From: Candidatus Daviesbacteria bacterium
Lineage (GTDB): Bacteria > Patescibacteriota > Microgenomatia > Daviesbacterales > UBA10151
DNA: 64,000 nucleotides
Direction of reading: 5' to 3'
NCBI GenBank assembly: GCA_016184225.1
Contig: JACPDA010000004.1
Span: 6,800-70,799 of the forward strand
Under the pieces are notes generated by a model that saw only the letters and a program-made list of their open reading frames with translations, was not told the origin of the DNA and searched no databases. Within the stretch, counting starts at the first letter, position 1; every line of letters starts with the position of its first letter. A program made the translations under genes and the position numbers. Below are positions 9,285 through 36,062 of the stretch, one piece after another.

Positions 9285-9450
9285 AAGAATGGAAACTTTT
9301 AGAAGCAGCGAAATCACAAGTAAACAAAAAATGTTGAGGATTTTGTGCTAACTGCCCCCATGCCATCAGATTAATGGTATCCACAAAATACTCACAAGCG
9401 AGCAAGTCTCTACTGTGCGAGCGATTTTTTGTACTGTGACGAGCTGCTTA
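9285..9450. repeat. intergenic repeat module of about 150 bp, copy 1 (related to 35915-36062; partial copy at 10812-10850)
   Basis: Shared blocks aaaaaatgttgaggattttgtgc ... ccacaaaat.ctcacaag.gagcaagt ... gtgcgagcgattttttg ... gacgagctgc. The module contains a conserved 12-bp stem (gaggattttgtg / cacaaaat.ctc). Confidence 0.6.
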
Positions 9451-9451
9451 C

Positions 9452-10027
9452 CTAATTATACTGATTTTGGGCTTTTTCTAAACCCTTTTCCAAAAGCAAA
9501 TTAAGCGCTTTGATTGCTTGTTTCATTATATGCTTAACCTGATGCTTTTCTGATTGCACAAAAGGCTCCAACACAAACTTTTCCACCACTCCTGTGGCCG
9601 GGCCAATTCCCAATCTCACTCTTATAAATTGGTCTGTCCCTAAGGCTGCAATAATAGATTCCACTCCATGATGCCCGGCTGCTGCCCCACCCATCCTGAT
9701 TTTAATTTTACCTAAAGGAAGGTCTAAATCGTCATGGACCACAATAAGGTCAGTAGTTGGTAGCTTGTAGTAAGTAGTCAGGAGTTTAATAGCCATACCA
9801 GAATTATTCATATAAGTTTGGGGTTTAGCCAGAATAAGTGACAAGTGATTAGTGCTAAGTGATAAGTCAAGGCGCAGAATTTCAGATTTAAACTTTTCTT
9901 TGTACTCCCACTTTGCACTTTGCACTTTGCACTTTGCACTTAACTCCTCCACCACCATAAAGCCTAAATTATGCCTGACACCAGCATATTTTTCTCCCGG
10001 GTTTCCCAGTCCCACTATTAGTTTCAC
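9452..10027 (-). CDS. pth: peptidyl-tRNA hydrolase carrying an in-frame repeat-derived insertion (KCKVQSAKW...)
   Basis: MKLIVGLGNPG...RHN start and an HDDLDL motif. The extra segment, relative to canonical Pth, is encoded by the TTTGCAC/TAAGTGC tandem repeats at 9844-9940. Confidence 0.9.
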   Translation of the reverse strand: MKLIVGLGNPGEKYAGVRHNLGFMVVEELSAKCKVQSAKWEYKEKFKSEILRLDLSLSTNHLSLILAKPQTYMNNSGMAIKLLTTYYKLPTTDLIVVHDDLDLPLGKIKIRMGGAAAGHHGVESIIAALGTDQFIRVRLGIGPATGVVEKFVLEPFVQSEKHQVKHIMKQAIKALNLLLEKGLEKAQNQYN

Positions 10028-10806
10028 TTCTTAAGTGCCTCCAGGATTTGCTCATGTATCAAACCATTTGAAGCTACAATATTTAATCTCTCCTTAGTCC
10101 AATCCGGCTCATTACCTGCAAAATCACTCACTTTCCCACCGGCTTCTCTGACAATTACCGCTCCTGCCGCAAAATCCCATTGCCATCCTTGAGCCACATA
10201 CCCGTCTAAAGCCCCTGTGCCAACTAGCGCCAAGATTCCTGCCGCCGGTCCGAACGAATAAGGATATCCCGCCTTCAAGGCCAATAGGTTAACATAACTT
10301 TCTATTTTTTGTTTCCGTCTAGCCTTATGGCCAAAATCCAGATCAATAACTGCCCCGTCAAGGTTTTTCTCCCGACTGACTCGAATAGTTTTGCCATTAA
10401 GATATGCCCCCAGACCTTCCTGGGCAAAATATAAATCCTGCGAGTAAACATCATTGATAACGCCTAGAATAGGCTTATTACTCTTTAACAGGCCGATTGA
10501 TACCGCAAAGAATGGGAGGCCATGCGCATAAGAGATAGTGCCATCCAAAGGATCAACAACCCAAGTATATTCGGATCCTTTATTTATTTTATTTTTTTCT
10601 TCTGCAATAATGTTATGTGTCGGAAAGTTTTTGGATAAGATCTCAACAATTTTTTCTTCTGATTCAAGATCTGCATATGTAGCAAAATCGCTTTTATCTT
10701 CATTTTTTAAGCTTAAGCTTAAACTCCTGCCGGAATATTTTTGTATTATTTTTCCAGCCTCTATAGCTGCCTGTTTGGCTACTTTTAAAAAATTATCTTC
10801 ACTCAT
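10024..10806 (-). CDS. inositol monophosphatase family protein (SuhB/ImpA-like)
   Basis: WVVDPLDGT metal-binding motif and the overall IMPase pattern. Confidence 0.8.
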   Translation of the reverse strand: MSEDNFLKVAKQAAIEAGKIIQKYSGRSLSLSLKNEDKSDFATYADLESEEKIVEILSKNFPTHNIIAEEKNKINKGSEYTWVVDPLDGTISYAHGLPFFAVSIGLLKSNKPILGVINDVYSQDLYFAQEGLGAYLNGKTIRVSREKNLDGAVIDLDFGHKARRKQKIESYVNLLALKAGYPYSFGPAAGILALVGTGALDGYVAQGWQWDFAAGAVIVREAGGKVSDFAGNEPDWTKERLNIVASNGLIHEQILEALKK

Positions 10807-10829
10807 AGATGTGGTCGCGCAAGCGGTTT

Positions 10830-11465
10830 TTACTGCCGTGACGAGCTAGCTTCTAATAAGTATATCACCTCTTTATCTGTCACAGGCTCAAATTGATGAT
10901 AAAACTGACCCACAGCCTGGAAATATTCAGGCGCCTCCAGTACTACACTCTGATCAACTTGCCCTTCCACCTTTCTTAGGGCATCTTGACTTGCAACAGG
11001 TACAGCCAATACTATCCTTGCTCCGTGTCTTTTTAGATATTTGATGGCTGAAAGAACTGTAGCTCCGGTGGCTATTCCATCATCTATCAAGATGGCCGTT
11101 TTGCCATTTACATCCAAGAGGGATCTACCGTTTCGATATAAATCTTCCCTTCTTTTAAGTTCTTTCCACTGATCGAGAACCTCTAGTTTCAGATCGTCAA
11201 TCTTAAGTCCTAAATCACTTAAAAGCCTATCTTCCCAGACCACTTCCCCGTCAGGATCAACTGCACCTAAAGCTAACTCCTCCTGACCAGGAGCACCAAT
11301 TTTGCGGGTGACTACAATATCCAAGGGCAAATTTAAATCTTTGGCAATTTCAGCAGCCACCACCACCCCGCCTCTGGGAATACCTAAAACAAGATCAGCT
11401 TTGATATCTTTCAATCTATTTGCCAGCAACTGCCCGGCAGATTGTCGATCCTTAAAGATCTTCAT
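10830..11465 (-). CDS. type I phosphoribosyltransferase-domain protein
   Basis: PRPP-binding loop ILIDDGIATGATV and N-terminal GIPRGG motif. Confidence 0.7.
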   Translation of the reverse strand: MKIFKDRQSAGQLLANRLKDIKADLVLGIPRGGVVVAAEIAKDLNLPLDIVVTRKIGAPGQEELALGAVDPDGEVVWEDRLLSDLGLKIDDLKLEVLDQWKELKRREDLYRNGRSLLDVNGKTAILIDDGIATGATVLSAIKYLKRHGARIVLAVPVASQDALRKVEGQVDQSVVLEAPEYFQAVGQFYHQFEPVTDKEVIYLLEASSSRQ

Positions 11466-11548
11466 AAATAGCTTTCAGTCATCAGCTATCAGCTTTCAGA
11501 CTTAAAATTGCAATAGTCTGACGACTGAAGACTGAAAGCTGACGACTA
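11466..11548. repeat. imperfect inverted repeat built from tcagct/ttcag units (related copy in frame inside the GT4 gene at 35241-35320)
   Basis: tcagtcatcagctatcagctttcagact...agtctgacgactgaagactgaaagctgacgac forms a long hairpin between two minus-strand genes. Confidence 0.6.
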
Positions 11549-11552
11549 TTTC

Positions 11553-12896
11553 CTAATCAAACAACCCCAACTGGGGAGCCTCCTCTGCTTCTTTGGCAAT
11601 CTCCTTCCCATGATCCCAAATCTTCACTATTCCATACACCCCATCATATCCCGGATCAATCACCAAATCTCCTTTTCTCACCTTTTCCACCCCTTCTGCC
11701 ACTTTATGTCCTGAAACTTTAGCAATTTCATCTGTTTTTATCTTGGTCAAAATTTTCATCTCATTCCCTAAGAAAGTTGTTAACTTTTTATACTCGTTTA
11801 GAACCTTTTGGGTTGTTGGGGCAGTTTCAAAAGCCTCAGCAATTATTTGTAAAAGCGGCACTAACATTCTATATCCAGCCCTTTCTGGAAACGCTCTACT
11901 TTTTATTAACCCTTGGACATTTTCAATTTTCAATTCTACATTCGATCGCGAAGCCATCGCTTCTACTCTTTCCATTACTCCCACGGTTAATCCCCTGCCA
12001 CAAACCGGGCACTTCTCCCCTTTTAGCTTAGTATCCTCCGGCGAATACTTCACATTACAACTGCGGTGTCCTGTGTAATGATATTTCCCCTCCTCCGGAT
12101 AAAATTCAATAGTACCTACTATTCCGTCATTGCGAGGAAGTTTACCCTGAGCTTGTCGAAGGGTGGCAATCTTGTTTGAAATAGCTTTCCATAAACCTTC
12201 GTATCTGTCTTCCAGATTACCCCCAAAAACCGTTGCCTCCCTGCCTAAATTAGGCAAAGAATGGGCATCAGAACAAGATATAATTGAGCGGTTGTCTAAC
12301 TCTTTAATCCGCCAGTTCATGGCCGGATCGCTGGACAACCCGGTTTCTATGGCATGAATATACTCTGTTAAATCTTCGAAGCAATCTTGCAAGGAGTTAT
12401 ACCCGGACTGCGAACCAAAAATGCCAAACCAGGGAGTCCAGGCATGGGCCGGCATAAAAATGACGTTTTGATCTATTTCCAAACACATCCTGAGCAATTC
12501 TTTAGAGGGAATTCCCACAATCGGCCGGCCGTCGGAGGAAAGGTTGGCTTTTTTTACCAGTAGGGCTTTTTGCAACTTCTCCACTGATTCAAACGAAGGC
12601 AGCATAATTACATTATGAATCCGGCGGACTGCGCCTTGGTGGGAATAAATCGAGGCCACTTCCACTGTTAAAACAAACTTAACTGCCGGATCTTTTTCAA
12701 AGCTTAAAAATCCCGAACCGTCATCTGTTAGCTGGCTTTTAAGCTCGGCAAACCAAAGGGGATGCAGACAGTCTCCTGTCCCCAAAACATCAATCCCTTT
12801 CAGCTTCCCCCATTCCACCAAATTAGGAACATTTAATGCTGGAGAACAGGCCCGGGAGTACCTGGAGTGAATATGCAAATCAGCTACATAGCCCAT
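11553..12896 (-). CDS. PHP-domain protein with a CPVCG zinc ribbon; EndoQ-like / TIGR00375-type
   Basis: N-terminal DLHIHS PHP metal-binding motif, a later CPVCGRG zinc finger, and about 447 aa. This matches my memory of the EndoQ family, but I have not verified it. Confidence 0.5.
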   Translation of the reverse strand: MGYVADLHIHSRYSRACSPALNVPNLVEWGKLKGIDVLGTGDCLHPLWFAELKSQLTDDGSGFLSFEKDPAVKFVLTVEVASIYSHQGAVRRIHNVIMLPSFESVEKLQKALLVKKANLSSDGRPIVGIPSKELLRMCLEIDQNVIFMPAHAWTPWFGIFGSQSGYNSLQDCFEDLTEYIHAIETGLSSDPAMNWRIKELDNRSIISCSDAHSLPNLGREATVFGGNLEDRYEGLWKAISNKIATLRQAQGKLPRNDGIVGTIEFYPEEGKYHYTGHRSCNVKYSPEDTKLKGEKCPVCGRGLTVGVMERVEAMASRSNVELKIENVQGLIKSRAFPERAGYRMLVPLLQIIAEAFETAPTTQKVLNEYKKLTTFLGNEMKILTKIKTDEIAKVSGHKVAEGVEKVRKGDLVIDPGYDGVYGIVKIWDHGKEIAKEAEEAPQLGLFD

Positions 12897-12932
12897 GCCC
12901 GCATTCTACCATATTAAATAACCAAGTACCTC

Positions 12933-13283
12933 TTGACTTATAGATTATACACCTGCTATAAATGGTTCATGATTGAGCGGGTCGGAGGTGTAATCAAAAA
13001 AGCAATAGAGCCACTTGTTAGGGTTGAAACCCAAACCTATGAAACTGCTGTTGCAAATCGCCTTGGCAGAATCGAACAGACAGAGACAAGGCGAGAATCT
13101 CTTATAGAAGAAAGTGTAAAAGGACAACCGAGAACAAGTGCTTATACCGAAGTTAGCGACGCCGCACTAGATTGGCTACACGCAACAAGCAGTGGTCTTG
13201 TGGCCGAAAGAAAAGCCATCTTATTAGGTCGCTTCGTCCTCAATTTACCATCTTACACATACTCGTGGCGTAACGCTAATTAA
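12933..13283 (+). CDS. hypothetical ORF in a 400-bp spacer; coding status doubtful
   Basis: Only the ORF track supports it; I recognise no motif. The region could equally be noncoding regulatory DNA or RNA. Confidence 0.2.
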   Translation: MTYRLYTCYKWFMIERVGGVIKKAIEPLVRVETQTYETAVANRLGRIEQTETRRESLIEESVKGQPRTSAYTEVSDAALDWLHATSSGLVAERKAILLGRFVLNLPSYTYSWRNAN

Positions 13284-13297
13284 ACTATTAATACTAT

Positions 13298-13819
13298 CTA
13301 TTCTTTCTTCTTTGCCATCCTTCTCTTAAAAAGATTCTCTCTAAACCCGCCTTCATTAACAAATTTTTCTTCTAACCATCTTAACTTTTGATCTAATAAA
13401 CGGTTGGTTTGGTTAATTAGGCAAATCATCGCATTTGCTGCGCTTTCTGCATTTTCAATATAATCTTTATAATTTTTATAATTATTATAATCGTTATATA
13501 CAAAGCCCCTGACTCTCCTGGCTTCCATAGAATCTTTCTCCCAAAATCCTAACCCATGCTGGCGCAAAAAATCCTGATAATCATTTAGGAGCTCTTCCAA
13601 GCTACCCCTTGCCACTCCTAAAAGTTTAATCCTTCCTTCTAGGCTCTTCTGTAAATACCCCTCAGCAATATTCTGTTTTCCGGATCTGGCAGCCTGCTCC
13701 ATCTGGTCTTTGGTTCTGGATTTGTAGTCAATATATTTTTGAACAAACTCAACAGTAAAATCATAAATAATTTCAGTTTGTTTAAAGAAAGGTAAATCTT
13801 TGTAGCCGCCGCTTGCCAT
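13298..13819 (-). CDS. four-helix-bundle protein (23S rRNA intervening-sequence protein family, PF05635-like)
   Basis: The QMEQAARSGKQNIAEGY segment matches the RRAA..NIAEG signature of this family. The gene contains an in-frame copy of a 33-bp AT-rich repeat that also occurs just upstream. Confidence 0.7.
   Translation of the reverse strand: MASGGYKDLPFFKQTEIIYDFTVEFVQKYIDYKSRTKDQMEQAARSGKQNIAEGYLQKSLEGRIKLLGVARGSLEELLNDYQDFLRQHGLGFWEKDSMEARRVRGFVYNDYNNYKNYKDYIENAESAANAMICLINQTNRLLDQKLRWLEEKFVNEGGFRENLFKRRMAKKKE
13464..13500. repeat. 33-bp repeat ttataatttttataaYtattataaYcgttatat, copy inside the CDS (encodes YNDYNNYKNYKDY)
   Basis: A second, near-identical copy lies at 13836-13871, in the gap between the ligase stop and this gene's start. 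Confidence 0.7.
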
Positions 13820-13870
13820 TTTGTTTTTATATAAATTTTATAATTTTTATAACTATTATAACCGTTATAT

Positions 13871-15619
13871 CTATTTCTTAAATTGAAGCTTATACATCTC
13901 AACCAACTCTTTAACAGTTGTAGCGTCTTCAGCGTGTTTATCAGAACCACGGAACTTGACCAACCTGGGAAATCTGAGGGCGTAACCGGGCTCTGAGCCC
14001 TTTTTTCCGGCAGTATGAACCGGGCTTCTTGTGATCTCATCTGCCAACACCTCAATCACTATCTTTGGTTCCACCCAAACACTCGGTGTAATGAGCGAGC
14101 TCACTCTGGCTGGTTTACTTTGCACTTTGAACTTTGCACTTTTCACTTTTATCTCCCTCCATTCTTCATCAGTTAAACCGGTGCCGATTTTAGAAACCGT
14201 CACGAATTCGTCTTTTCCCTTATCGTAAACACCCACCAACAAAGAACCAGCTCCGAACCCTGCCCGTTTCCCCCGGCCGAAGATATAGCCTAAAATTACG
14301 CAATCAATTGTGTCTTTGAGCTCTCCTGCCGAGTGTCTTTTTAGCTTGACCCAATTGAAATTTCTGGCTCCTGCCTCATATTTTGAATCAGGCCTTTTAC
14401 AAACAAGCCCTTCCAATCCCTTGGTAATTGCATCATCAAATAATTCAATAATCCGTTTTACTGACTTGGTAAACTCCCCGGGCTGCGCAAGTAAAACCGT
14501 ATCAGGGGTGATGACTTTTTTCAATTTTTCCATCCGGGCTCGGAGGGATAAGTCAATTAAGGATTTCCCATTTAAATACATAATGTCAAACACAAAAGCT
14601 TTTAAAGGTAAGCTTTTTGCCATCTCCTCAATGTTATATTTACGCCGTCTTTTAGTGGTTTCCTGGAAAGGCAAAAATTCCTCTGACTCCGGGTTAAAAG
14701 CTACTGCTTCCGAGTCCAAAATAATGCTGTCTGCTTTAACTTGTTTCAAAATCCCCTGGATAATCTCGGGAAACATGGGTGTAGTTTCCTCTAAATTCCG
14801 GGAAAACAGCCTGACTTTTTGACCTTGTTTGTGTATTTCAATCCTGAAACCATCATATTTATACTGAACATGTGCTTCGCCGCCAAATTTTTCTAAAATG
14901 GTATTGGCATCAGGCAAACGTTCTGCCAGCTGCGACCTGATGGGTCGACCCACTGTCACATCCAAGCTCCGCACTCCCTGAATTCCCTGACTCCATAATG
15001 TTTCCGCAATCACTCCTAAATCAGAAGTTTTATTGTAAGCTTCTTCCAGCTCTTTGCGCCTTTTCCGGTCCCCCAGCTTAGCCAGGGCAAAGCCGTCTAA
15101 CACCGTCGGATCCCCTATTCCCAACCTGGAAACACCCAGAGGAATCCTGACCAGATGTTTTGCCGAAACCGGATCCATCTGCTTTAGCAGACCGGAAAGA
15201 AGTTCCAATTTTTTCTCAACTGTCCCCTTCCCGGCAGTCCCGGCAATCTCTGTCAAAGTCTTAAATACATCTGTAATTGTCATTCTGGCTTGTCCAGAAT
15301 CGATTCTGGATGCGCTTTGCTTACCAGAATGACGTTGTGCCACAACCCCTAAGTCTCCTACCTGTCCATATTCTCTCAACACCTCTTCCCGCTCTACTCC
15401 ATAAGCTCTGGCAATAGATTGAGCCACCAACTTCTCGCTCATACCGATCTCAATCGGTTCATAAAAAGGCGCCACCCGGCCCTGGATTAAATAAACCACT
15501 TTGGCAATTTCCGCAGGTTTAACTTTGGAAAAAAGCTCTGCCAAAATATCAATTAAAGAGAGTCTGGAAGAAGTCTGTTCCAATTTTTCAAAATACTCTG
15601 TAAGTTTAGAAAATTTCAT
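13871..15619 (-). CDS. lig: ATP-dependent DNA ligase (LigI/LigB family)
   Basis: KYDGFRIEIHK (KxDG adenylation motif) and the downstream ligase motifs. The true start is probably MKFSKLTEYF near 15619. The 71-codon 5' extension in the ORF track runs through a MITE-like repeat and is likely not translated. Confidence 0.85.
   Translation of the reverse strand: MKFSKLTEYFEKLEQTSSRLSLIDILAELFSKVKPAEIAKVVYLIQGRVAPFYEPIEIGMSEKLVAQSIARAYGVEREEVLREYGQVGDLGVVAQRHSGKQSASRIDSGQARMTITDVFKTLTEIAGTAGKGTVEKKLELLSGLLKQMDPVSAKHLVRIPLGVSRLGIGDPTVLDGFALAKLGDRKRRKELEEAYNKTSDLGVIAETLWSQGIQGVRSLDVTVGRPIRSQLAERLPDANTILEKFGGEAHVQYKYDGFRIEIHKQGQKVRLFSRNLEETTPMFPEIIQGILKQVKADSIILDSEAVAFNPESEEFLPFQETTKRRRKYNIEEMAKSLPLKAFVFDIMYLNGKSLIDLSLRARMEKLKKVITPDTVLLAQPGEFTKSVKRIIELFDDAITKGLEGLVCKRPDSKYEAGARNFNWVKLKRHSAGELKDTIDCVILGYIFGRGKRAGFGAGSLLVGVYDKGKDEFVTVSKIGTGLTDEEWREIKVKSAKFKVQSKPARVSSLITPSVWVEPKIVIEVLADEITRSPVHTAGKKGSEPGYALRFPRLVKFRGSDKHAEDATTVKELVEMYKLQFKK
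15278..15333. repeat. MITE-like hairpin element (ends TGTCATTCTGG...CCAGAATGAC), in frame inside the ligase gene
   Basis: Terminal inverted repeats with an internal gattctgga block. It encodes RHSGKQSASRIDSGQARMT within the ligase. Confidence 0.75.
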
Positions 15620-17761: not shown

Positions 17762-17817
17762 CTATACCCTATACCCTATACCCTATACCCTATACCCTAT
17801 ACCCTATACCCTATCTT
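17762..17817. repeat. tandem heptamer array (CCTATAC) x8
   Basis: Perfect 8-copy array in the spacer between fic and the PaaX-like gene. Confidence 0.9.
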
Positions 17818-17879
17818 CCCACATTTCCCGCAAAAAATCTAATTTGAATCTTGATGTACCAATTGCTTGTACGATCGCA

Positions 17880-19364: not shown

Positions 19365-22300
19365 TTATTGGGAAACATATTCATCCCAACTCTTGATTTT
19401 TAAATCCTCCATTTTCTTATTAGTTAATGCTGAAATTAAAAGTTCTGCTGCCTGTAAATTAGTTATCAGGGGTATTCCTAAATCAACACAAGTCCTCCTG
19501 ATAATAAACCCATCGGTTTCACCTTTTTTCGAACGGGGTTTGGAAATGTTTATCACTAAATCAATACCGTCTTGTTTTAACAGGTCCAAAACTGACGGGT
19601 GCTTTCTTTCCGAAATTTTAGAGACTCTGGTACTTTGAATATCATTCTTACTTAAAAACTCATGGGTCTGCGGTGTCGCATATATCTTAAAACCTAAGTA
19701 GAATAAATCCCTTGCAGACGAGAGCAAATCCAGTTTATTTTCTTCTCCGCCAATAGTTAATAAAACTGATTTTTGGGGCATCTTAAAACCGGTGGCCAGT
19801 ATGGCTTTAAGATAAGCTTCCTGCAGGTCATCACCAAAACAGGCCACCTCCCCAGTTGAAGACATCTCCACCCGAAGCCTTGGATCAGCTCCCTTAATCC
19901 GGCTAAAGGAAAACTGAGGAGCTTTTACCCCGACATAATCTAAGTCTAAGGTATTAAAGTCTCCCGATATCTTCTCCCCCAGCATCACCTGAGTTGACAT
20001 TTCCACAAAGTTATAGCCGGTTACTTTAGAAACAAACGGGAAAGAGCGGGAAGCGCGCAGGTTTAATTCAATCACCAAAACCTGATTATCTTTGGCTAAA
20101 AACTGGATATTAAAAGGACCGTTTATATTCAATGCCTGGAGAATCTTTCTGGTAGCATCCTTAACTTTTCTCACAGTTTCCAAATACAACCGCTGCGGCG
20201 GCAAAACTATGGTGGCATCCCCGGAGTGCACCCCGGCATTTTCCACATGCTCGGAGATGGCGTAAATTAGAAGCTGGCCATCCTGTCCCACCCCATCCAC
20301 CTCAATCTCTTTGGCTCCTTCCACAAATTTAGAGACAACCACCGGATGCTCTGCCGATATATCGGCTGCGCTTTTTAGCGCTCTTTTCAAATCAGTGCCG
20401 GAATATGCCACGTTCATGGCAGAACCTGATAAAACATACGAGGGCCTGATCAAAACTGGATAGCCTATTTTTCTGGCAAACTTAAGTGCCTCATCAGCAG
20501 TTTTCAAGCTCTGCCAATCCGGCTGCAGAATTCCCAGTTGATCCAGCAGTTTAGAAAACTTATCCCTATCCTCTGCCCGGTCAATGCTTTCCGGGGAAGT
20601 CCCCAGTATTTTATAACCGGCCCGGAAACAGTCCATTGCCAAATTATTGGGAACTTGCCCGCCAAAACCTAAGACAAGTGCTGAGTGCTTAGTGTTTAGT
20701 GTTGAGTTTTTCCAACTTTGCACTTTGAACTTTGCACTTTGCACTTCTATTTCATAGATATCACTCACCCGCTCAAAGGTCAGTTGCTCAAAGTACAACT
20801 TATCTGCCGAGTCGAAGTCAGTAGAAACAGTTTCCGGATTACAATTTATGATAATTGTTTCCAAGCCCCTACTTCTAAGTGTTTGCGCAGCTGTCACCGA
20901 GCACCAGTCAAACTCCACTGAGGAACCAATCCGATAAGGCCCGGAACCCAAGACGATTGCCTTTTGCTTCTTTTTGTCATCCTGGCTTGTCCAGGATCCT
21001 TGCTTTTTTGATTCTGGACGCACTTCGTTTGCCAGAATGACATTCTCTTTCTCCGTTTCATCTCCATGATATGTCAAATATAAATAATTCGTCTTGGCCG
21101 GATATTCTGCTGCCAGGGTATCAATATGTTTGACCTTCGGCACTATGCCATTCTTTTTCCTAAACTCCCTTACTTCTTCCTCCGTTTTTTTAAGCCCTTT
21201 AGCCAATATCTTATCTGAAAACCCCAACTTCTTAGCTTCTCTAACAATTTCTGACTGCAACCTGTTGCCTGTAACCTGTAACCTACCTTCAAACTTCACT
21301 ATTTCCTGAATCTGATACAAAAACCAAGGATCAATGCCGGTTGCCTTATAGACAGCCTCTACAGATTCGCCCTTGCCGAATCTTTTGGCAATCACAAATA
21401 GCCGCTCTGTTGTAGGTAAAAGTTTCGTGTCGTCAATACTGTTTTGCAGTAACCCATCTTGACCTGTTTCCAGCATCCTGATGGCTTTTTGCAGCACTTC
21501 CGGAAAACTTCGTCCGACAGCCATCACCTCTCCCACGCTTTTCATCTCCGAACCAATCGCCTCTTTTGCCCCCACAAATTTTTGCAAATCCCAGCGCGGG
21601 ATCTTAACCACTATATAGTCTAACGCCGGCTCAAAAAATGCCGAAGTTGACAGAGTCACGCTATTTTTTAACTCCGGCAGGTTATAACCTAAGGCAAGTT
21701 TGGCGGCAATGTAGGCCAAGGGGTACCCGGTAGCTTTTGAGGCCAAAGCAGAAGACCGGGACAACCTGGCATTTACTTCAATCACCCGGTAGTCATTATT
21801 TTTAGGATTTAAGGCAAACTGGATATTACATTCACCGACAATCCCTAAATGTTCAATCACCGCAAGAGAGATTCTGCGTAAAAAATGATACTGGTAATTA
21901 TTAAGAGTTTGGGAAGGAGCCACTACAATACTCTCTCCGGTATGGATGCCTAAAGGATCCATATTTTCCATATTACAAACAGTAATTTTGTTGCCTAAAT
22001 TGTCCCGGACTACTTCATACTCAACCTCTTTCCAGTGCTTTAAATACTCTTCTACAGCTATCTGGGGGGCCTGCTTCAAAGCTAAAGTCACCATCTGGAT
22101 AAGCTCTTTTTCATTTTCTATAACTCCGGACCCCAATCCTCCCAAGGAAAAACCGCTTCTTATGAGTAAAGGGTATCCTAACGTTTCTGCAATTTTTAGG
22201 GCCTGATCTAGTGAGCGGGCAAACCCGCCTTTGGGAACCTTAACACCTATCTTGGCCAGCTCCTTAGCAAACAGTTCCCTGTCTTCTGTAATCCGAATAC

Positions 22301-25216: not shown

Positions 25217-25486
25217 TCATTAGATCAGAAACTTACAAGGGCCTTTTATGGCGGTGCCACCTTGCTTAAATTTTTTTACAAAAATTTATCTCTTTCAGCG
25301 CTCCGTTCCGCCAGCTGGCGGACGACACGCTTATTGTATTTGCACAGTTCAATTTCTGTCATACTCTATCCTTCGACTTCGCTCAGGACTGATGTATGCT
25401 GCTTGTCCGCTGCGGCGGACTTATCGTTGCTTACGCAAACAAACGCATTATGAATACAGTATACCATAAAAACTTAAGTTGTCAAA

Positions 25487-30293: not shown

Positions 30294-30321
30294 AAGGATA
30301 TTGTACTACAGAAGAATCAGT

Positions 30322-30573: not shown

Positions 30574-30603
30574 ATCTTCAGTCTAACCCATCTGAAAAAT
30601 CTG

Positions 30604-30855: not shown

Positions 30856-30866
30856 TCATAAAGGGT

Positions 30867-31718
30867 TTAAATTAATTTAACTAACCTGCCGCTTCTTAAG
30901 GATTTCTTAAACACCAGAGTGAAAAAGATCAGCGAGGCAACCATATAAATTATGTTCAATAAAACCGCTGTCCAGAAGGAACCATAATCAAACTGGCCAA
31001 ACTTTAAAGTATATCTCATACCCTCAAATACATGGGAAATAGGCAAGAAAAAAGCGATCTTTTGAAATATGGGTGGCAAGACAGAGATCGGATAAAAAAC
31101 AGCGGCAAAGGGTTGGACAAAAAACGGCAAAATCCAAGTTAAGGGTCCGATTGAATGGCCATATTTTAAAATTAAGGAAATATTAAAAATGCCGAAAGAG
31201 ATGGCAAAGATAAATAAATTTATCCAAAGCAGGGCCAAACCAAACCCCAGGCTGGTAATTTGAAAATTATAAAAAATCCCGGCCATCAGCCACATAGAAG
31301 TTAAGGCAATCATGATTTTAATAAAACTAATTGTTAAAAGCCCTGTTAAAAATTCTAAAAATGTAATTGGTGAAGCCAAAAGGTTGATAATATTGCGGTC
31401 CCAAATTTCAAACATAAAATTTACCCCGATATCAGTACTGACTTTTTCAAAAATCACCCACAAAATCATCCCCCCAAGCAAAAATGATGCTAGCTGGGAA
31501 GACTGGATATTTTGCACATATTTTGACAAAAATCCCCACAGAATTAAAACCAACACCGGAGAAATAATCACATCAAAAAACCTCTCCAGCTGATGCATGG
31601 TGGTAAAAATATGCCTTAAGACTATCGCAAAGATTCTGTTAAGATTCATATTTACTCCTTGATAGGTGGATGAATACATCCCTAAGGTTTGGCTCATCCC
31701 CTTCCAGCTTAAGCACAC
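30867..31718 (-). CDS. ABC-2 type transporter permease
   Basis: Six TM helices; lies downstream of the ABC ATPase. The real start is probably an internal Met. Confidence 0.7.
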   Translation of the reverse strand: MCLSWKGMSQTLGMYSSTYQGVNMNLNRIFAIVLRHIFTTMHQLERFFDVIISPVLVLILWGFLSKYVQNIQSSQLASFLLGGMILWVIFEKVSTDIGVNFMFEIWDRNIINLLASPITFLEFLTGLLTISFIKIMIALTSMWLMAGIFYNFQITSLGFGLALLWINLFIFAISFGIFNISLILKYGHSIGPLTWILPFFVQPFAAVFYPISVLPPIFQKIAFFLPISHVFEGMRYTLKFGQFDYGSFWTAVLLNIIYMVASLIFFTLVFKKSLRSGRLVKLI

Positions 31719-32424
31719 TCTGAGTCAACTCAAGCGGGGTACCGGAAGCCACAATTTTTCCGTGGTTTAAGAAAATCACATTATTGGCAATCTCTTCTAT
31801 TTCCCACATGTTGTGGGAAGTATAAAGAATGGTAATTTTTTCCTCTTTTTGGATTTGTTTGAGCAAATTAATCCCTTTATCCACCACATCAGGATCCATG
31901 GAAACCATCGGCTCATCTAAAAGCAGTAGTCTTGGTTTATTAAGCAAGGCCTTACACAGGTTAGCCCTAGCCCGTAGCCCTGTTGATAAATCCCGGGTAG
32001 CAGTGTTGCGGAAATCAATCATTTCAAAAAGCTGGAGCAGTTCCGTGATTCTTTTTTTGGCCTCCGGCACTTCATAAAGCTTGGCATAAACCAATAAGTT
32101 CTCCCAAATAGTTAAATTCCAAGGCAAATTAAAATCAGCCGAAGCATAATTTACTTCTTTAAAAATTTCACTCCTGTCTTTGGAAATATCCTTGCCAAAA
32201 ATACGGATATTACCCTCATCCGGAACAATCAAACCTAAAATGCAATAAATAGTGGTAGATTTGCCTGCCCCATTTGGTCCTAAAAATCCCAAAATCTCCC
32301 CTTCTTTCAAAGAAAAAGAAATATTATCAATAGCAGTAAATCCGCCGGCTGGCGGACCAAAGTTTTTCCTTAAATTTTTCACTTCCAAAATCACCCTTTT
32401 ATCCATAATTTTCCCTTCTGTCAT
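31639..32424 (-). CDS. ABC transporter ATP-binding protein
   Basis: Walker A GPNGAGKST, ABC signature and Walker B LLLLDEP. It contains an in-frame PPAGG. Confidence 0.88.
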   Translation of the reverse strand: MTEGKIMDKRVILEVKNLRKNFGPPAGGFTAIDNISFSLKEGEILGFLGPNGAGKSTTIYCILGLIVPDEGNIRIFGKDISKDRSEIFKEVNYASADFNLPWNLTIWENLLVYAKLYEVPEAKKRITELLQLFEMIDFRNTATRDLSTGLRARANLCKALLNKPRLLLLDEPMVSMDPDVVDKGINLLKQIQKEEKITILYTSHNMWEIEEIANNVIFLNHGKIVASGTPLELTQSVLKLEGDEPNLRDVFIHLSRSKYES

Positions 32425-32503
32425 TGCGAGCGATTAGCGTGGCAATCTAATTAAGGATTTACCCACCCAAGATTGCTTCGTCACTACGTTCCTCGCAATG
32501 ACA
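32419..32503. repeat. MITE-like element, long hairpin variant (TGTCATTGCGAG...CTCGCAATGACA)
   Basis: 11-bp terminal inverted repeats enclosing about 60 nt; intergenic. Confidence 0.7.
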
Positions 32504-32592
32504 ATTGTATTGTATTTATTGTAGTTTAGATTGAGGCTAATTACCAGAGATCAAGCAGGTTTTGCGGAACGGGTTACAACCCTGAGCGAGCG

Positions 32593-33579
32593 TTAGCGAG
32601 TCGAACGGGCCTCAGAGACTTTTTGGGCTCTTTCTAAAAAGCTTTTTTGGGCAGCCTGTACATTTTCTTCCTTCCCGACCCAGACGGTTAAGGCCTCATC
32701 CTGCAAAGCCCGGCCATATGAGAAAGACAACTGCCAGGGACCACCAATTTTGGTGATAGCAGCCAAATTCTCAGTGGCCTGATCTGGAGTCTGGCCTCCT
32801 GACAAAAACACAATCCCGGGAACCTCTTTTGGTATTACTTCCAGGAAAGTTTGTACCGTAGCTTCGGCAATTTCTTGACTGCTGGCCTGAATAGAACTTT
32901 CCTTCCCGGAAATAACCATATTAGGCTTTAACACCATCCCTTCTAATACTATTTTGTGGGCTTTTAACCGGTTAAAAACCGCTTTCAAGGTTTTAGCAGT
33001 TACTTCCCAGCATTTTGCCAAATCATGGCTGCCGTCCATCAGCACTTCCGGCTCCACGATCGGCACTATCCCCTGCTCCTGACAAAGTTTGGCATATTCA
33101 GCCAGCCTTTCAGCGTTTTGCTGAATACAATTATCCGTCGGTATTCCCTCTCCGATGGTAATAACAGCCCGCCATTTGGCAAATTTCGCACCTAATTGCT
33201 TGTATTCAGATAACCGCTCTTTTAATCCCTCTAAACCTTCCGTGACTTTCTCACCTGCAGAATTTGGTAAATCTACCAAACCCTGATCCACTTTTATTCC
33301 CGGTAAAATCCCTTTACTTTCCAGGTATTTTGGAACAGACACCCCATTAATAGACTGCCTGATTGTTTCATCATAAAGGATGACACCTGATAAAAACTGT
33401 TCAATTCCTGGAGTAGTAAAAAGCATTTTGCGGTAAGCTAAATTAGTTTCCGGGCTGGACTGCAAACCGATTTTTTCAAATCTTCTTTGAATGGTTTTAG
33501 TAGATTCATCAGCAGCCAGGATCCCTTTTCCCGACGCCATTAGAGCTTGAGCAGTTTGTTTTAGTATAGATATATCCAT
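32593..33579 (-). CDS. fructose-bisphosphate aldolase, class I
   Basis: The GILAADESTKT motif and overall pattern fit class I FBA. Confidence 0.8.
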   Translation of the reverse strand: MDISILKQTAQALMASGKGILAADESTKTIQRRFEKIGLQSSPETNLAYRKMLFTTPGIEQFLSGVILYDETIRQSINGVSVPKYLESKGILPGIKVDQGLVDLPNSAGEKVTEGLEGLKERLSEYKQLGAKFAKWRAVITIGEGIPTDNCIQQNAERLAEYAKLCQEQGIVPIVEPEVLMDGSHDLAKCWEVTAKTLKAVFNRLKAHKIVLEGMVLKPNMVISGKESSIQASSQEIAEATVQTFLEVIPKEVPGIVFLSGGQTPDQATENLAAITKIGGPWQLSFSYGRALQDEALTVWVGKEENVQAAQKSFLERAQKVSEARSTR

Positions 33580-33589
33580 ATCCTCCTCT

Positions 33590-33673
33590 TGTCATTCCGA
33601 GGAGCGAAGCGACGTGGGAATCTTTATTTTTTAATCAAGATTGCCACAGCCACTTCGTGGCTTCGCAATGACA
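33590..33673. repeat. MITE-like element, long hairpin variant (TGTCATTCCGAGGAGCGAAGC...GCTTCGCAATGACA)
   Basis: Same terminal family; intergenic between fba and glpX. Confidence 0.7.
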
Positions 33674-33674
33674 C

Positions 33675-34730
33675 TTAACGGTGTAACCGTTTTTCTATCT
33701 TGGCACCTCTTTTAGATACTGTCAAGGTTGTCACTTCATGTCCGCCGTCTTTTTCTACTACTCCGGATAAATCAAACCATTTATTATCACCGGTTATGGC
33801 AGAAATGGAGACCGAGCAATCCTCCTTTTTACCGGAAACCAACTCATCTATTTTCCAAGCCTTTTTGTATTTTTGGGCAATTTCCGTATCAGGCGACCAA
33901 CCCCTACCTTCCCCTACCGCCCCCAAAGCTTTGGCTGCCACTGCCGCGAGTACCCCCTCTTCAAATCCTCCAATCCCCATCACCAGATGTATTCCTTTTG
34001 TCATTCTGGCACCGACTCTGTCGAGTGTCCTCGATTCCATCGGGACTTGTCCAGAATCTTTTTTAGGATCCATACAAGATAAGATAGACGGCAGAAAGTC
34101 TCCGGCGGGAATCTTAATGAGATTAACCCCGAATTTTTGGCAGGCATTAATCAAATGGCTATTCCTGTCCCGATCCATCATCACCACATTAATCTCAGCA
34201 GGTTTGACTCTAAATATATCCACCACTTCTGCTAAATTTTCCTCTACTCTCTTATCAATGGAAATCTTACCTAGTAGCTCGGGTGGGCCAAATAATTTAT
34301 CCATATAATCTATATCCGGCGGAGTTGGCATCAAGCCTTTGTGGGAACCTACTGCGATCACAGAAACAGCCCCGGGAGAATTTAACTTGGCAGCTTTACT
34401 GCCTTCCACCACATCGTTAACCATGTCCAATTTCAAGTCACTTCCGCCAGCTGGCGAACCAAAAGTTCCCTCCAAAGTTGGCAGCGCTTCCCCGTATTGA
34501 TGGATATGTTTTCTGCCCTCAGAGCCAACTACTTCCAAAACAAACGGGATATCGGTTAAAGCAGCATACATAGCATCCACCCCGGCCTGGTCAATCAATT
34601 TCTCCCGGGCCTTGGATTCTTCTTCTGTCAAAAGATCTTGCGGGCTAAAGCCTTTTTCCTGAATTAGCCTCCAAACTGATAAAGCAGTTAGCTCGGTGGC
34701 ACGAATAATATAATCTCTAACTTTAGGCAT
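33675..34730 (-). CDS. glpX: fructose-1,6-bisphosphatase class II (GlpX-like)
   Basis: Alignable by eye to GlpX (VIAVGSHKG, IPAGDF..ILSCM, MGIGGFEEGVLAAVAAKALGA). It contains an in-frame PPAGG-type palindrome and a MITE-like insertion. Confidence 0.75.
   Translation of the reverse strand: MPKVRDYIIRATELTALSVWRLIQEKGFSPQDLLTEEESKAREKLIDQAGVDAMYAALTDIPFVLEVVGSEGRKHIHQYGEALPTLEGTFGSPAGGSDLKLDMVNDVVEGSKAAKLNSPGAVSVIAVGSHKGLMPTPPDIDYMDKLFGPPELLGKISIDKRVEENLAEVVDIFRVKPAEINVVMMDRDRNSHLINACQKFGVNLIKIPAGDFLPSILSCMDPKKDSGQVPMESRTLDRVGARMTKGIHLVMGIGGFEEGVLAAVAAKALGAVGEGRGWSPDTEIAQKYKKAWKIDELVSGKKEDCSVSISAITGDNKWFDLSGVVEKDGGHEVTTLTVSKRGAKIEKRLHR
33999..34058. repeat. MITE-like element, in frame in glpX
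   Basis: TGTCATTCTGGCACCGACTCTGTCGAGTGTCC...GGACTTGTCCAGAATC encodes ...DPKKDSGQVPMESRTLDRVGARMT... Confidence 0.7.
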
Positions 34731-35892
34731 CTTTTTTAAGATTCTTCTCTATTAATTCCAAAATTTCTTTTTTAAATCGCTCCTTAGAAAACCTTTCGGC
34801 ATTTTTCCTTAAATTTTCAGCTTTGAAATTATCTTCCCTGAACTCCCGCAGTACACCGATCAAACTCTCTACTGTCACCATTCCCGGGCCACCGTATAGT
34901 AATCCTGTTGCCTGGTCCACCACTGTTTCCAAAAACCCGCCGCTTCTCGGAGCTATCACCGGAGTTCCGGCTGCTTGGGCCTCAACTCCGGTAATGCCAA
35001 AATCCTCATCTTCGGAGGCCAAAATCAGAGCTTTAGCGTTTTGCAAGAGTTTGATTCTTTCTTCGTCAGAAACCCAACCAAGAAAGGCATCAGGTTTCAG
35101 GTTACAGGTTACAGCAAGATTCTTTAAATTGTCCAGTTCAGGGCCGGTTCCGGCTACTTTTAGCGGCAACCCTAATTTTCCGCAAGCCTCCACCACTATA
35201 TCCACTCCCTTTCCCCTTACTAATCGACTTAAAACCAGGAAATAGCTATCAGCTTTCAGCTTTCGGCTTTCAGACTGTCTAACGACTGCGGGCCCCCGAA
35301 GGGGAGGACGACTGAAAGCTTTAATATCTACCGGCGGGTATATCACCACACTATCCCTTCTATAAAACTTCTTGATTCTCTCTTGGATATTTTTGGAATT
35401 AGCCACCAATATATCCGGCCGCTGGGAAACTTCAAAATCATAAATCCGTAAGAAATGATTTGCTAATTCTCCTAAAATCCGGGTGACAGGATTCTTCTTA
35501 TAATTAAATGAGGTGGTGTAGCCATATAAAAAACGCGGGGGGGTGTGAATATAGCTTAAATGCAAAGCTTCAGGTTTAGTGATTGCCGCCTTAGCTGAAT
35601 AAGTAGCAGCGGAGGTAATTACCAAATCATAGGCCGAGAAATCAAAGCTTTCAAACATCATCGGGGCAAATAATCTAAAAGGAGACAATAACTTATTGGC
35701 AAAAGGAAATTTCTGAAACCAAGAAGTCCGAATATCCCAACTTTTAAACCTTTTGCCGTTTTCTCCCATTGAACTAAGGTTTACATAAGCAGTATACAAA
35801 GGAGCCTCCGGAAAAATTTCATGCAAAGCTTCCAGCACCCGCTCAGCACCACCATATTCCCTTAAATAATCATGCGCCAAGGCTACTTTCAT
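34723..35892 (-). CDS. glycosyltransferase family 4
   Basis: EX7E-type motif (EDFGITGVEAQAAGTPVIA). It contains in-frame GTTACAG and tcagct repeat blocks. Confidence 0.8.
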   Translation of the reverse strand: MKVALAHDYLREYGGAERVLEALHEIFPEAPLYTAYVNLSSMGENGKRFKSWDIRTSWFQKFPFANKLLSPFRLFAPMMFESFDFSAYDLVITSAATYSAKAAITKPEALHLSYIHTPPRFLYGYTTSFNYKKNPVTRILGELANHFLRIYDFEVSQRPDILVANSKNIQERIKKFYRRDSVVIYPPVDIKAFSRPPLRGPAVVRQSESRKLKADSYFLVLSRLVRGKGVDIVVEACGKLGLPLKVAGTGPELDNLKNLAVTCNLKPDAFLGWVSDEERIKLLQNAKALILASEDEDFGITGVEAQAAGTPVIAPRSGGFLETVVDQATGLLYGGPGMVTVESLIGVLREFREDNFKAENLRKNAERFSKERFKKEILELIEKNLKKDA

Positions 35893-35914
35893 CTTTAAGT
35901 ATTATACCTTCTAA

Positions 35915-36062
35915 AAGGCAACGAAGTCTAAGCCAGTCAAAAAATGTTGAGGATTTTGTGCGAATTGTCTCAATGATAAAAGACCAAAATCCTCCACAAA
36001 ATTCTCACAAGTGAGCAAGTTCCAACCGTGCGAGCGATTTTTTGCGGCCAGACGAGCTGCTT
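35915..36062. repeat. intergenic repeat module of about 150 bp, copy 2 (see 9285-9450)
   Basis: Same conserved blocks and the same 12-bp stem, with one compensatory-looking difference. Confidence 0.6.

Follow-up and report, generated by a model that had tools for sequence, protein, structure and literature searches.

A repeated element of about 150 nt with a conserved three-armed fold at gene ends in Candidatus Daviesbacteria

Daviesbacteria are tiny uncultured groundwater bacteria. In a 64 kb stretch of DNA from one of them, called the window, the same intergenic sequence stands behind two minus-strand genes separated by 26 kb. This raises the question of what the repeated sequence is, and whether it acts as DNA or as a folded RNA.

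Two copies in the window and their family

Copy A occupies positions 9303-9449 on the minus strand, between the stop codon of pth (TAG, 9454-9452) and a DsbA-like gene, and copy B occupies 35914-36063, also on the minus strand, between the stop codon (TAA, 36064-36062) of a gene for a 273-aa protein and a glycosyltransferase gene. The first-pass annotation of this DNA had placed two full copies at 9285-9450 and 35915-36062, each after one minus-strand gene and before the next; the gene context holds, and the boundaries come close to the spans given here, which run from basal helix to basal helix. Two covariance models, R1 and R2, scored both copies, with 168.9 and 154.1 bits, respectively, for copy A (match at 9298-9455) and 160.9 and 147 bits for copy B (35911-36068), and neither model found a further match with an E-value below 0.1 in the rest of the 64 kb. 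Two diagnostic blocks, one of 33 nt and one of 23 nt, are both found exactly twice in the window, and 100 shuffles produced neither. The annotation had, however, ended the module too early: in minus sense it does not stop at ...AACAUUUUUUG but extends about 25 nt more, to include the basal-helix 3' strand (UUUACUUGUGAUUUCGCUGCUU in copy A).

Scanning public genomes and metagenomes for sequence patterns and then applying a covariance model yielded 72 matches, 60 of them distinct, counts that are biased since the census was seeded by exact sequence patterns from the window. The possibility left open at first, that only two copies exist, is set aside by this number. All named genomes carrying the module belong to Candidatus Daviesbacteria, of the CPR, and the remaining matches are metagenome contigs. 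In Rfam release 15, neither window copy gave a match above noise on either strand; the best hits, to microRNA models, were at chance level (E-values 0.07 to 4). As far as the databases searched extend, the module is an interspersed, Daviesbacteria-specific structured RNA element of about 150 nt, and the family is previously undescribed.

A three-way junction with compensatory changes in its helices

The module folds as a three-way junction of a basal duplex, P1, and two hairpins, P2 and P3. P1, roughly 22-25 bp long, pairs both ends (AAGnnGC and GCnnCUU) and closes the module; its asymmetric internal loop, UC/UUC, is invariant, and its 3' strand has conserved bulges of one nucleotide. On the minus strand of copy A, the P1a strand AAGCAGC (9443-9449) pairs with GCUGCUU (9303-9309), the near-invariant UC (9441-9442) faces UUC (9310-9312), and the 5' strand of P1b and P1c (GUCACAGUAC AAAAAAU, 9424-9440) pairs with 9313-9332, so that the 3' strands of P1c, P1b and P1a read AUUUUUUG UUUACUUGUGAU UUC GCUGCUU over 9303-9332. 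The corresponding 5' strands of copy B (P1a, the UC loop, P1b as GUCUGGCCGC, and P1c; 36037-36063, minus) pair with 35914-35945.

Hairpin P2 (GCUCGCAC AGUAGAGAC UUGCUCGC in copy A, 9398-9422; 36011-36035 in copy B, both minus) contains a UC/UC loop like that of P1, set between G-C and C-G pairs, and at locus L087 an insertion is tolerated in its apical loop. Hairpin P3 lies at 9335-9394 in copy A (5' strand 9382-9394, loop 9348-9381, 3' strand 9335-9347) and at 35948-36007 in copy B (3' strand 35948-35960, 5' strand 35995-36007), again on the minus strand. Rich in A and U, it has a conserved pyrimidine mismatch; its loop, of about 27-34 nt, bears the motif AUCAUUAAG, and AAC separates the hairpin from a U-run. 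This is the 12-bp helix singled out in the annotation, in which GAGnAUUUUGUG pairs with CACAAAAUCCUC; copies A and B indeed share the position of the mismatch, which is U.C in the former and A.C in the latter.

Covariation supports the fold. In a MAFFT alignment of 51 distinct copies, made without reference to structure, 92.8% of cells pair, versus 41-46% in slid controls, and compensatory changes occur in 29 of 39 pairs, values that 0 of 500 shuffles reached. The covariation suspected from the window copies thus persists once many copies are aligned, and the module is real, repeated and structured. All 12 pairs of P3 show compensatory changes across the family; P2 covaries on this alignment and also on the one built with R1, although that model left P2 unpaired; and the column pairs with the highest mutual information are pairs of P1, P2 and P3. 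Within P1, the P1a pairs covary (CG, UA, UG, GC; AU, GC), P1b falls into three main covarying types, with ACAGUA in copy A and UGGCCG in copy B, and P1c changes from AAAAAAU/AUUUUUU to AAAGCAC/UUGCUUU in 8 divergent copies. The nucleotides of the UC/UUC loop are invariant or at least 90% conserved among the 51 copies.

Wobble pairs do not indicate which strand folds: at paired positions G.U was counted 71 times and A.C 57 times (p = 0.25), and in P2 A.C outnumbers G.U, which leaves room for a single-stranded DNA or antisense role. The module strand was assigned from gene context, with which replication direction could be confounded.

Placement behind stop codons and a probable role in the message

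In 36 of the 39 copies with a clear upstream ORF on the same strand, the stop codon of that ORF begins 2-20 nt before the conserved GCUCGUC, and in the other three the ORF reads into the module. Two gene-context surveys, read together, place a same-strand gene upstream in about 44 of 48 assessable copies. Being sense-oriented at or just after a stop codon, the module would therefore be part of the upstream gene's mRNA, as its 3' end. Downstream, the start codon lies 7-58 nt past the module, often preceded by its own -10 box; many genes start 7-20 nt beyond the module and lack a recognisable promoter, and some copies lie between convergent genes. Where -10 boxes occur, their offsets from the module vary from 3 to 50 nt, and one such box is present at a site without a module. 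Following copy A, a promoter-like TTGACA-17-TAGACT of the DsbA-like gene (9258-9286, minus) lies outside the module and is conserved at locus L007 of a related genome, after the divergent copy there; following copy B, a promoter-like TAGACT-18-TATAAT of the glycosyltransferase gene (35901-35930, minus) has a -35 element overlapping the conserved GACUUCG of the module 3' strand.

Our preferred reading, with a probability of about 0.4, is a structured RNA located between cistrons or at the 3' ends of mRNAs, where it probably serves in processing, stability or protein binding. RNase III is a double-strand-specific endonuclease that processes sites between the early genes of phage T7. The folded module would mark and insulate the 3' end of the upstream message, with the P1 duplex and its internal loop serving as a substrate of RNase III type that is cut once, so that the upstream mRNA would keep a protective 3' structure and the downstream cistron would be freed with a short leader. 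Judging from the twin UC/U(U)C loops and the invariance of the junction nucleotides, a dedicated protein may also recognise the fold, and a repeated protein-binding site, one of the functions first proposed, is plausible at the RNA level. Long ago, a process resembling transposition or recombination probably spread the family, which would now be inherited mostly vertically, under selection for structure. Speaking against this reading, the conserved P2/P3 junction is more elaborate than an RNase III site requires. In its favour, by analogy with other bacterial repeats, RNase III cuts Correia-containing transcripts at their paired ends, and ERIC insertion at a gene's 3' end changes mRNA levels (PMC10969869).

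The same placement, after a stop codon, often right before the next promoter and sometimes between convergent genes, is typical of an intrinsic transcription terminator. An elaborate and possibly bidirectional one, with the whole fold or P3 plus the U-run stopping RNA polymerase, would also suit the A-run and U-run that flank the upper part of most copies and the short U-rich CUUUU after the basal helix, and the SPRITE repeats of pneumococcus are terminator-like (PMC10969869). We nevertheless consider termination unlikely. The U-run is base-paired, and GC-containing pairs replace it in the 8 divergent copies; P3 is A/U-rich, with a large loop and the AAC between it and the U-run; and the P1 pairs 3' of the U-run covary, so that this segment must belong to the functional strand. 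A terminator scan returned none in copy A or copy B and no canonical terminator hairpin, whereas classic terminators of GC hairpin and U-run exist elsewhere in the window and genome. Moreover, the close downstream genes without a recognisable promoter argue for read-through. The fixed terminator-plus-promoter unit of the annotation is likewise unsupported, since the U-run is one strand of a covarying helix, the scan came back empty and the -10 boxes keep no fixed distance.

Alternatively, many mRNAs could give rise, from their 3' UTRs, to a processed, stable small RNA that acts in trans, for instance by sponging an RNA-binding protein or serving as its cofactor. The three-way junction with its invariant nucleotides, the two similar internal loops, the conserved P3 loop motif and the pairing between the two ends, as is typical of RNAs processed to a stable form, are consistent with such a product. 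We judge it quite improbable, as the module has no promoter of its own, action in trans would not require exact placement at stop codons, and paralogous copies diverge strongly. An independently transcribed small RNA, as the annotation had also proposed, is unlikely too: the 5' end of the module abuts or overlaps the stop codons of unrelated upstream genes, and the family copies examined show no conserved promoter upstream of that end and none at fixed spacing.

Remnants, movement and known repeat systems

The partial copy reported at 10812-10850 proved to be a true remnant. Spanning 10811-10853 on the minus strand, it retains only the 5' ~40 nt of a divergent subtype, matches the family from GCUCGUCAC via AAAAACCGCU to GCGCGACCAC and then breaks off where the inositol monophosphatase gene has its start codon; it is read through by the phosphoribosyltransferase ORF (...EASSSRQ-stop), and at L007 the orthologous phosphoribosyltransferase 3' end bears a complete module. 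Neither covariance model scores the remnant, because so little of the module is left. A different hairpin of 87 nt (11466-11552, minus), between the PHP-like and phosphoribosyltransferase genes, also escaped both models; it has UCGUCAGC...GCUGAUGAC in common with the basal stem, a full module occupies the matching junction at L008, and the hairpin may be a distant relative. Shortened derivatives retain the basal stem and its loop, and internally deleted mini-copies and solo arms occur. Module positions vary between related genomes, with L008 copies absent from the window and L007, and the reverse. At the pth-to-DsbA junction, the window and L007 both have a copy, of different subtypes, a pattern more suggestive of replacement or gene conversion than of simple vertical descent.

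These shifting positions and the mini-copies and solo arms are what a non-autonomous mobile DNA element of MITE or REPIN type would leave, with P1 as its terminal inverted repeat, the fold as a hairpin in single-stranded DNA that a transposase from elsewhere in the genome recognises, and the place after stop codons as a tolerated insertion in a packed genome. The module is small, multi-copy and without an ORF, with inverted ends; some ORFs run into it, as after insertion; the wobble statistics favour neither strand; and Logan assemblies break inside it, as is usual at repeats. Even so, this reading is doubtful to us. No target-site duplication or fixed target sequence was seen at the ends, about 0.5 Mb of examined loci contained neither a partner transposase nor a long element with these ends, and no copy turned up in the IMG/VR viral contigs scanned. 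Copies inside one genome are only 47-82% identical, indicative of no recent mobile activity, and the nearest relative of each copy is found in another genome. The outermost and subterminal arms vary and covary, unlike a conserved transposase site, the internal hairpins covary as well, and the strong sense-orientation bias is unexpected for symmetric cut-and-paste.

Integron attC sites, such as the Vibrio cholerae repeats, are also repeated imperfect palindromes, of 60-140 nt, that begin at the stop codons of co-oriented ORFs, and they share with the module a basal helix, an unpaired spacer and a second helix with extrahelical bases on one strand beneath a variable top. We give very little credence to a single-stranded DNA recombination site of this kind, which would allow movement of module-flanked genes. 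Two modules do flank single genes (pth in L007, a 591-nt ORF in L002), and the inositol monophosphatase gene of the window lies exactly at the truncated module. But no second module follows that gene, 26 kb separate copy A from copy B, the module ends are not RYYYAAC/GTTRRRY core sites, no integrase was seen in the loci examined, and what the modules flank is not a cassette array but housekeeping genes whose order is conserved.

As a structured RNA at mRNA 3' ends, the module resembles ERIC, Correia and REPIN repeats and is a member of none. ERIC (enterobacterial repetitive intergenic consensus) and the Correia repeats of Neisseria are imperfect palindromes of 100-160 nt, present in many copies in transcribed intergenic regions and co-transcribed with flanking genes, whose inverted ends give long RNA hairpins (PMC10969869). 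In contrast, the module has no sequence similarity to them, resides in a CPR lineage, lacks a TA or other target-site duplication, and has as its interior a conserved three-way junction with two covarying hairpins rather than a simple rod; it sits exactly at stop codons with a strong sense bias, and its paralogues are far more diverged. REPINs, doublets of REP mobilised by RAYT transposases, are likewise extragenic, hairpin-forming, long-lived and mostly inherited vertically, and compensatory change maintains their stems (PMC3116915, PMC3337134). The module differs in that neither of its arms is a REP palindrome, its interior is not a short spacer but about 100 nt of conserved, structured sequence, the loci examined showed no RAYT gene, and copies of one genome are not near-identical. 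The phage T7 early-gene sites for RNase III are about 60 nt long, unbranched and not mobile repeats, in contrast to the module, but resemble it as intercistronic hairpins of two helical segments split by an asymmetric internal loop; there a single cut leaves a stabilising 3' hairpin on the upstream mRNA and releases the downstream cistron.

The repeated module and its family

The first-pass annotation had described two look-alike segments of about 150 nt at 9285-9450 and 35915-36062, and both proved real, with long identical blocks common to the two. The split pattern GCGAGCGATTTTTTG-N6-GACGAGCTGCTT and a second diagnostic block, AAAAAATGTTGAGGATTTTGTGC, each occur exactly twice in the window and not once in 100 shuffles. 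We delimited the full copies at 9303-9449 (copy A) and 35914-36063 (copy B). The neighbouring genes lie on the minus strand on every side of both copies, as had also been noted, and the module is therefore read in the minus sense. Copy A is located between the stop codon of pth (9452..10027) and a DsbA-like gene, and copy B between the stop of a gene for an unknown 273-aa protein (36062..36883) and a glycosyltransferase gene, the two downstream assignments being Pfam matches. Two covariance models, run with filters off over the 64 kb, returned no full copy beyond these two.

We next consider identities already on record. ARAGORN was silent at both modules, which rejects a tRNA or tmRNA. Rfam 15 holds no counterpart of the module: at gathering thresholds the whole window gave tRNAs only, and a permissive search of both module regions returned nothing beyond microRNA and sRNA matches at chance level, so that known ribozymes, riboswitches, 6S RNA, tRNA-like RNAs and TnpB/IscB guide-RNA families were rejected. 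Full-text literature searches on repeats in CPR bacteria and on Daviesbacteria found no description of it either. An encoded peptide was likewise rejected: the 52-aa ORF that crosses copy B is missing from copy A, whose P2 loop contains a UAG, and no ORF is conserved. Elsewhere in the window, the Rfam group I intron model RF00028 matches 61276-61555 on the minus strand (40.1 bits, E = 7e-9), largely within a 323-nt non-coding gap at 61282-61604 (fold of -102 kcal/mol for 343 nt); this match is missing from the whole-window scan because its score is below the gathering score of 50.

The module is repeated well beyond the two window copies, with 60 distinct sequences among the collected loci. 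Scanning one genome per GTDB species with the exact 5' block pattern yielded 10 matches on 9 contigs, several genomes having 2 or 3. Seven of the nine contigs are labelled Candidatus Daviesbacteria, and the other two come from MAGs labelled 'uncultured Gammaproteobacteria'; one of the latter, L008, shares synteny both with the window and with a contig from Daviesbacteria. An independent 3' block, AACATTTTTTG-N8-11-GACTTCGC, recovered 79 loci from JGI metagenome contigs, about 29 of them chance matches on unrelated GC-rich contigs, and at least five pattern matches fell on one 1.02-Mb contig. A covariance model built from 11 copies and run over all collected loci (E < 0.001) gave 72 matches, the source of the 60 distinct sequences, including divergent ones of 30-80 bits that fit neither search pattern. 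Two pattern scans of IMG/VR viral contigs produced three chance matches, none confirmed by the model, and on this outcome viral carriage was rejected.

A conserved, covarying three-way-junction fold

In the minus sense, the module folds into a basal helix (P1, composed of P1a, P1b and P1c) and two internal hairpins (P2 and P3), which meet at a three-way junction with conserved unpaired C, UU and AAC. In P1a, AAGnnGC pairs with GCnnCUU over 5-7 bp, and the n-n pairs covary (CG, UA, UG and GC at one; AU and GC at the other). The P1 internal loop is asymmetric and near-invariant, with UC opposite UUC. The 5' strand of P1b is GUC followed by six variable nucleotides, which occur as three main covarying types (ACAGUA, UGGCCG and AGCGCG) and further compensated variants, and its 3' strand bears conserved single-nucleotide bulges. 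In P1c, CAAAAAAU pairs with AUUUUUUG; eight divergent copies have AAAGCAC paired with UUGCUUU there.

The pairs of P2 are, in order, G-C, C-G, a UC/UC internal loop, G-C, C-G and A-U, capped by an apical loop with consensus CGGUAGAGACU that tolerates a 30-nt insertion at one locus (L087). The first P2 fold, CUCGCA/UGUGAG, as in single-sequence minimum-energy folds, was discarded since it clashes with P3, which covaries in loci L009 and L003; the replacement is backed by covariation. P3 pairs UGAG-n-AUUUUGUG with CACAAAAU-C-CUCA around a conserved mismatch (pyrimidine or A.C), and its loop of 27-34 nt contains AUCAUUAAG. In some copies (loci L003, L009 and L081) unrelated sequence takes the place of P3 with the pairing kept. 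P1 and P2 have in common the local motif 5'-GCUCG opposite 5'-C(U)UCGC.

One stem had earlier appeared to covary, and on the alignments all three helices do so. Over 33 pairs in the model-fitted alignment, 93.7% of cells were paired, against 38-46% in slid controls; the corresponding values were 90.3% and 39-45% with P2 and a basal extension added, and 92.8% and 41-46% in a structure-blind MAFFT alignment of 51 distinct copies. Changes on both sides were found at 26 of 33, 34 of 43 and 29 of 39 pairs, respectively, counts that 0 of 500 shuffles reached in each case but that are no probabilities, since the shuffle control ignores phylogeny. The case for covariation is strong because the slid controls keep relatedness and because independent variants occur inside each P1b type. 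Additionally, P3 changes on both sides at all 12 of its pairs in the MAFFT alignment, and P2 covaries though it is unpaired in the model behind the fitted alignment (C-G 29 and U-A 18 at one pair; C-G 41, U-A 3, G-C 2 and A-U 1 at another). RNAalifold scored 15 of 37 pairs as compensatory in the first 11 copies. A blind mutual-information scan of all column pairs placed those of P1, P2 and P3 at the top and nothing outside them, which rejects a pseudoknot. Multi-helix covariation in an alignment not fitted to the structure is the mark of a structured non-coding RNA, and the module has it. At paired positions G.U and A.C were not significantly different (71 vs 57, p = 0.25) and thus give no strand signal; gene context favours the sense strand as the one that is folded and transcribed.

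Placement at gene ends and occupancy between genomes

The module lies directly behind stop codons, in the sense direction, and has persisted through speciation. A clear same-strand upstream ORF accompanies 39 of the 53 distinct copies. In 36 of these, the distance from the start of the stop codon to the G of GCUCGUC is 2-20 nt (mode 6-10 nt), which places the stop at or within the 5' strand of P1; the remaining three ORFs run into the module and end at a UAG in the P2 loop. All three stop codons are in use (TAA 16, TAG 12, TGA 11). Among the 14 copies without a clear upstream ORF, we read five as being at contig ends and five as having a same-strand ORF that ends 24-380 nt upstream, so that roughly 44 of 48 assessable copies would lie sense to an upstream gene.

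On the other side, the downstream start codon follows 7-58 nt beyond GACUUCGC. In many downstream genes a TATAAT-like or TGnTAnAAT box precedes the ATG by 6-9 nt, some have a Shine-Dalgarno sequence, others have neither this nor a -10-like box, and several copies lie between convergent genes. The earlier suggestion of a fixed terminator-plus-promoter unit does not survive these data: the offset from module to -10 box varies from 3 to 50 nt across the family, so the promoter lies outside the module, and neither copy was found to contain a terminator. At the ligase-to-PHP junction an extended -10 promoter is present both in L007, a related locus without the module there, and in L008 with it. We also observed a promoter-like sequence, CTTGCAT-CAGAAACAAAG-nCG-TTAAAAAT, conserved 20-50 nt downstream of modules in L009, L067, L033, L016, L044, L055 and L057, followed in L009 by a tRNA gene; this could represent a class of strong promoters serving RNA genes in these organisms.

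Three loci share the order of genes around copy A but differ in which junctions carry a module. In L007 the order is PHP, phosphoribosyltransferase (PRT), module, pth, divergent module, DsbA and ZIP. In the window it is PHP, another hairpin of 87 nt, PRT, a truncated remnant, inositol monophosphatase (IMPase), pth, copy A, DsbA and ZIP, and in L008 it is module, PHP, module and PRT. The remnant, at 10811-10853, corresponds to the third, partial copy reported at 10812-10850, and it is genuine because it stands at the site occupied by the module after PRT in L007; the PRT ORF of the window now runs through it. The module has been gained and lost on long time scales, as its occupancy differs between species. 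The pth-to-DsbA junction carries a canonical copy in the window and a divergent subtype in L007, so replacement or conversion between copies also seems to occur. Copies within a genome are only 47-82% identical, while the nearest relative of each copy is in another genome (82-93%), often at the same junction, and there is no recent burst of copying.

Other inserts and repeats were seen around these genes. Three related genomes each have a different structured insert at the PHP-to-PRT junction: L008 carries a full module there, the window the 87-nt long hairpin at 11466-11552 (minus strand), and L007 a GC-rich element (CTCGCTCGACTATGCTCGC...) at 2673-2788. Inserts that form hairpins seem to accumulate at gene junctions in these genomes. 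Between the ATP-dependent DNA ligase and PHP-like genes, 12897-13819 looks like an inserted unit because the two genes are adjacent in L007 and L008; it comprises a minus-strand gene of the 23S_rRNA_IVP four-helix-bundle family (13298..13819; 33.4 bits vs a Pfam cut-off of 33.8) and about 400 nt of adjoining non-coding DNA (12897-13297) in which an Rfam search gives nothing. A second small GC-rich repeat, CCTTCGAC-nn-CGCTCAGG(G), unrelated to the module, occurs at 25371(+), 54068(+), 51508(-), 23307(-) and 12161(-), with a similar one at about 53280(-). The PHP-like gene has one copy in its reading frame; translated as ...TLRQAQGK..., this explains about 17 residues that the L007 orthologue lacks, a situation reminiscent of Rickettsia palindromic elements, which likewise insert into coding sequence. 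Tandem heptamer arrays of ACTTTGC or CACTTTG, about 4.6 copies each, are found at 9909-9941, 14117-14149 and 20715-20746 inside three different minus-strand ORFs, including pth, whose L007 orthologue has no such repeat at the corresponding position. A perfect tandem CTATACC heptamer (GGGTATA in minus sense; 7.6 copies, 17762-17814) occupies a 178-nt spacer between two minus-strand genes, and three intergenic spacers, near 17870, 18400 and 42370 (minus sense), share the short motif GATGCGATCGTACAA or GTGCGATCGTACAA.

As the main rival to a function in RNA we consider an old mobile DNA element that forms hairpins, with a fold that would matter as single-stranded DNA, a reading that we regard as rather unlikely. 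Consistent with such an origin, occupancy varies between loci, internally deleted mini-copies (45-126 nt) and solo arms exist, and the wobble pairs carry no strand signal. The module is also small, non-coding and multi-copy (about 150 nt, 60 distinct copies), and its 5' and 3' 30-35 nt form terminal inverted repeats that pair as P1, as in a MITE. Yet at the ends of 43 copies there was no consistent target-site duplication, TA dinucleotide or fixed target sequence (a duplication in old copies may have decayed), and about 0.5 Mb of collected loci contained no partner element with module ends or with arms 1-2 kb apart. The arms covary, whereas a transposase site would be conserved, and copies in the same genome are not near-identical. 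A REPIN consists of two inverted REP palindromes, each with a conserved 5' tetranucleotide, and a short spacer; the arms of the module are instead not self-palindromic, and what they enclose is a conserved junction of 100 nt that includes P2 and P3. A typical MITE or REPIN was therefore rejected on the missing duplication, covarying arms, structured interior, diverged paralogues and strand bias. An integron attC-like site is highly improbable: the basal R box, built from core sites RYYYAAC (5') and GTTRRRY (3'), is absent, the module ending in AAGnnGC and GCnnCUU instead; no integrase lies near either window copy; and the flanking genes, which include pth, phosphoribosyltransferase, DsbA-like protein, glycosyltransferase and tRNA genes, are housekeeping ones in conserved synteny and not a promoterless cassette array.

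Possible function and comparison with known systems

An intrinsic terminator requires a GC-rich short-loop hairpin followed by an unpaired U-run, and a terminator scan was silent in both copies. The U-run of the module is paired and covarying, the helix continues 3' of it, and P3 is weak with its large loop, all of which rejects a classic intrinsic terminator; textbook terminators do occur elsewhere in the window, for example at 24855-24836 and 23827-23812 on the minus strand. A complex terminator is a quite unlikely reading. A small RNA, another first-pass candidate, was rejected as an independently promoted gene on the upstream-gene context, and a trans-acting RNA processed from the upstream message is improbable.

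We tentatively favour, at a probability of about 40%, a module that acts at the RNA level and would define or protect the 3' end of the upstream message, separating it from the next gene. The layout of P1 (5-7 bp, a 2x3 loop and about 18 bp with bulges) amounts to roughly two helical turns of duplex, as in RNase III sites, where an internal loop often sets the position of a single cut; P1 would be a candidate for such a site. Single-cut RNase III sites of similar design lie between the early genes of phage T7, likewise a duplex with an asymmetric internal loop. In Correia elements, RNase III cuts the P1-like paired part (PMC10969869). Because the UC/U(U)C loop motif is duplicated and the junction invariant, an additional, specific protein partner may also be involved.

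A bolder and unlikely extension is that the module represents a new class of structured-RNA punctuation for CPR mRNAs, a portable three-way junction placed after stop codons and read by a dedicated protein through the twin UC/U(U)C loops, which would make it host machinery and not a decayed transposon or terminator. The role of such a protein would be to set where mRNAs end, or to link adjacent genes and unlink them, in a genome that has hardly any intergenic space.

To our knowledge, almost nothing is known of gene-expression signals and non-coding RNAs in CPR bacteria, which have not yet been grown alone. The module adds a well-supported new RNA structure, with three covarying helices and a sharply defined genomic grammar: after a stop codon, in sense, and ahead of whichever start codon or promoter comes next. 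If its role lies in processing or insulation, it would reveal how these minimal genomes delimit their transcripts and would point to a partner protein. Were it an old mobile element, it would be, as far as we know, an unusual case in this lineage of a repeat family kept for its fold, located at gene boundaries around which the order of genes varies from genome to genome. There are practical consequences as well. The module fragments short-read assemblies of these genomes; each of the six Logan contigs (L092-L097) that carry the DsbA-like gene of the window starts inside module A, 94-195 nt upstream of that gene, as expected at a repeat. It can also lengthen or shorten annotated ORFs, as in the three that run into it and the window gene that ends inside the remnant.

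Interspersed repeats that fold and are transcribed are known in other bacteria, namely REP/REPIN, ERIC, Correia and BOX/RUP/SPRITE. The module differs from these in its unrelated sequence and in its CPR host lineage, and it shows no target-site duplication of the kind expected of a MITE. Compared with them, it is more elaborate and more RNA-like, and its placement relative to stop codons is unusually strict.
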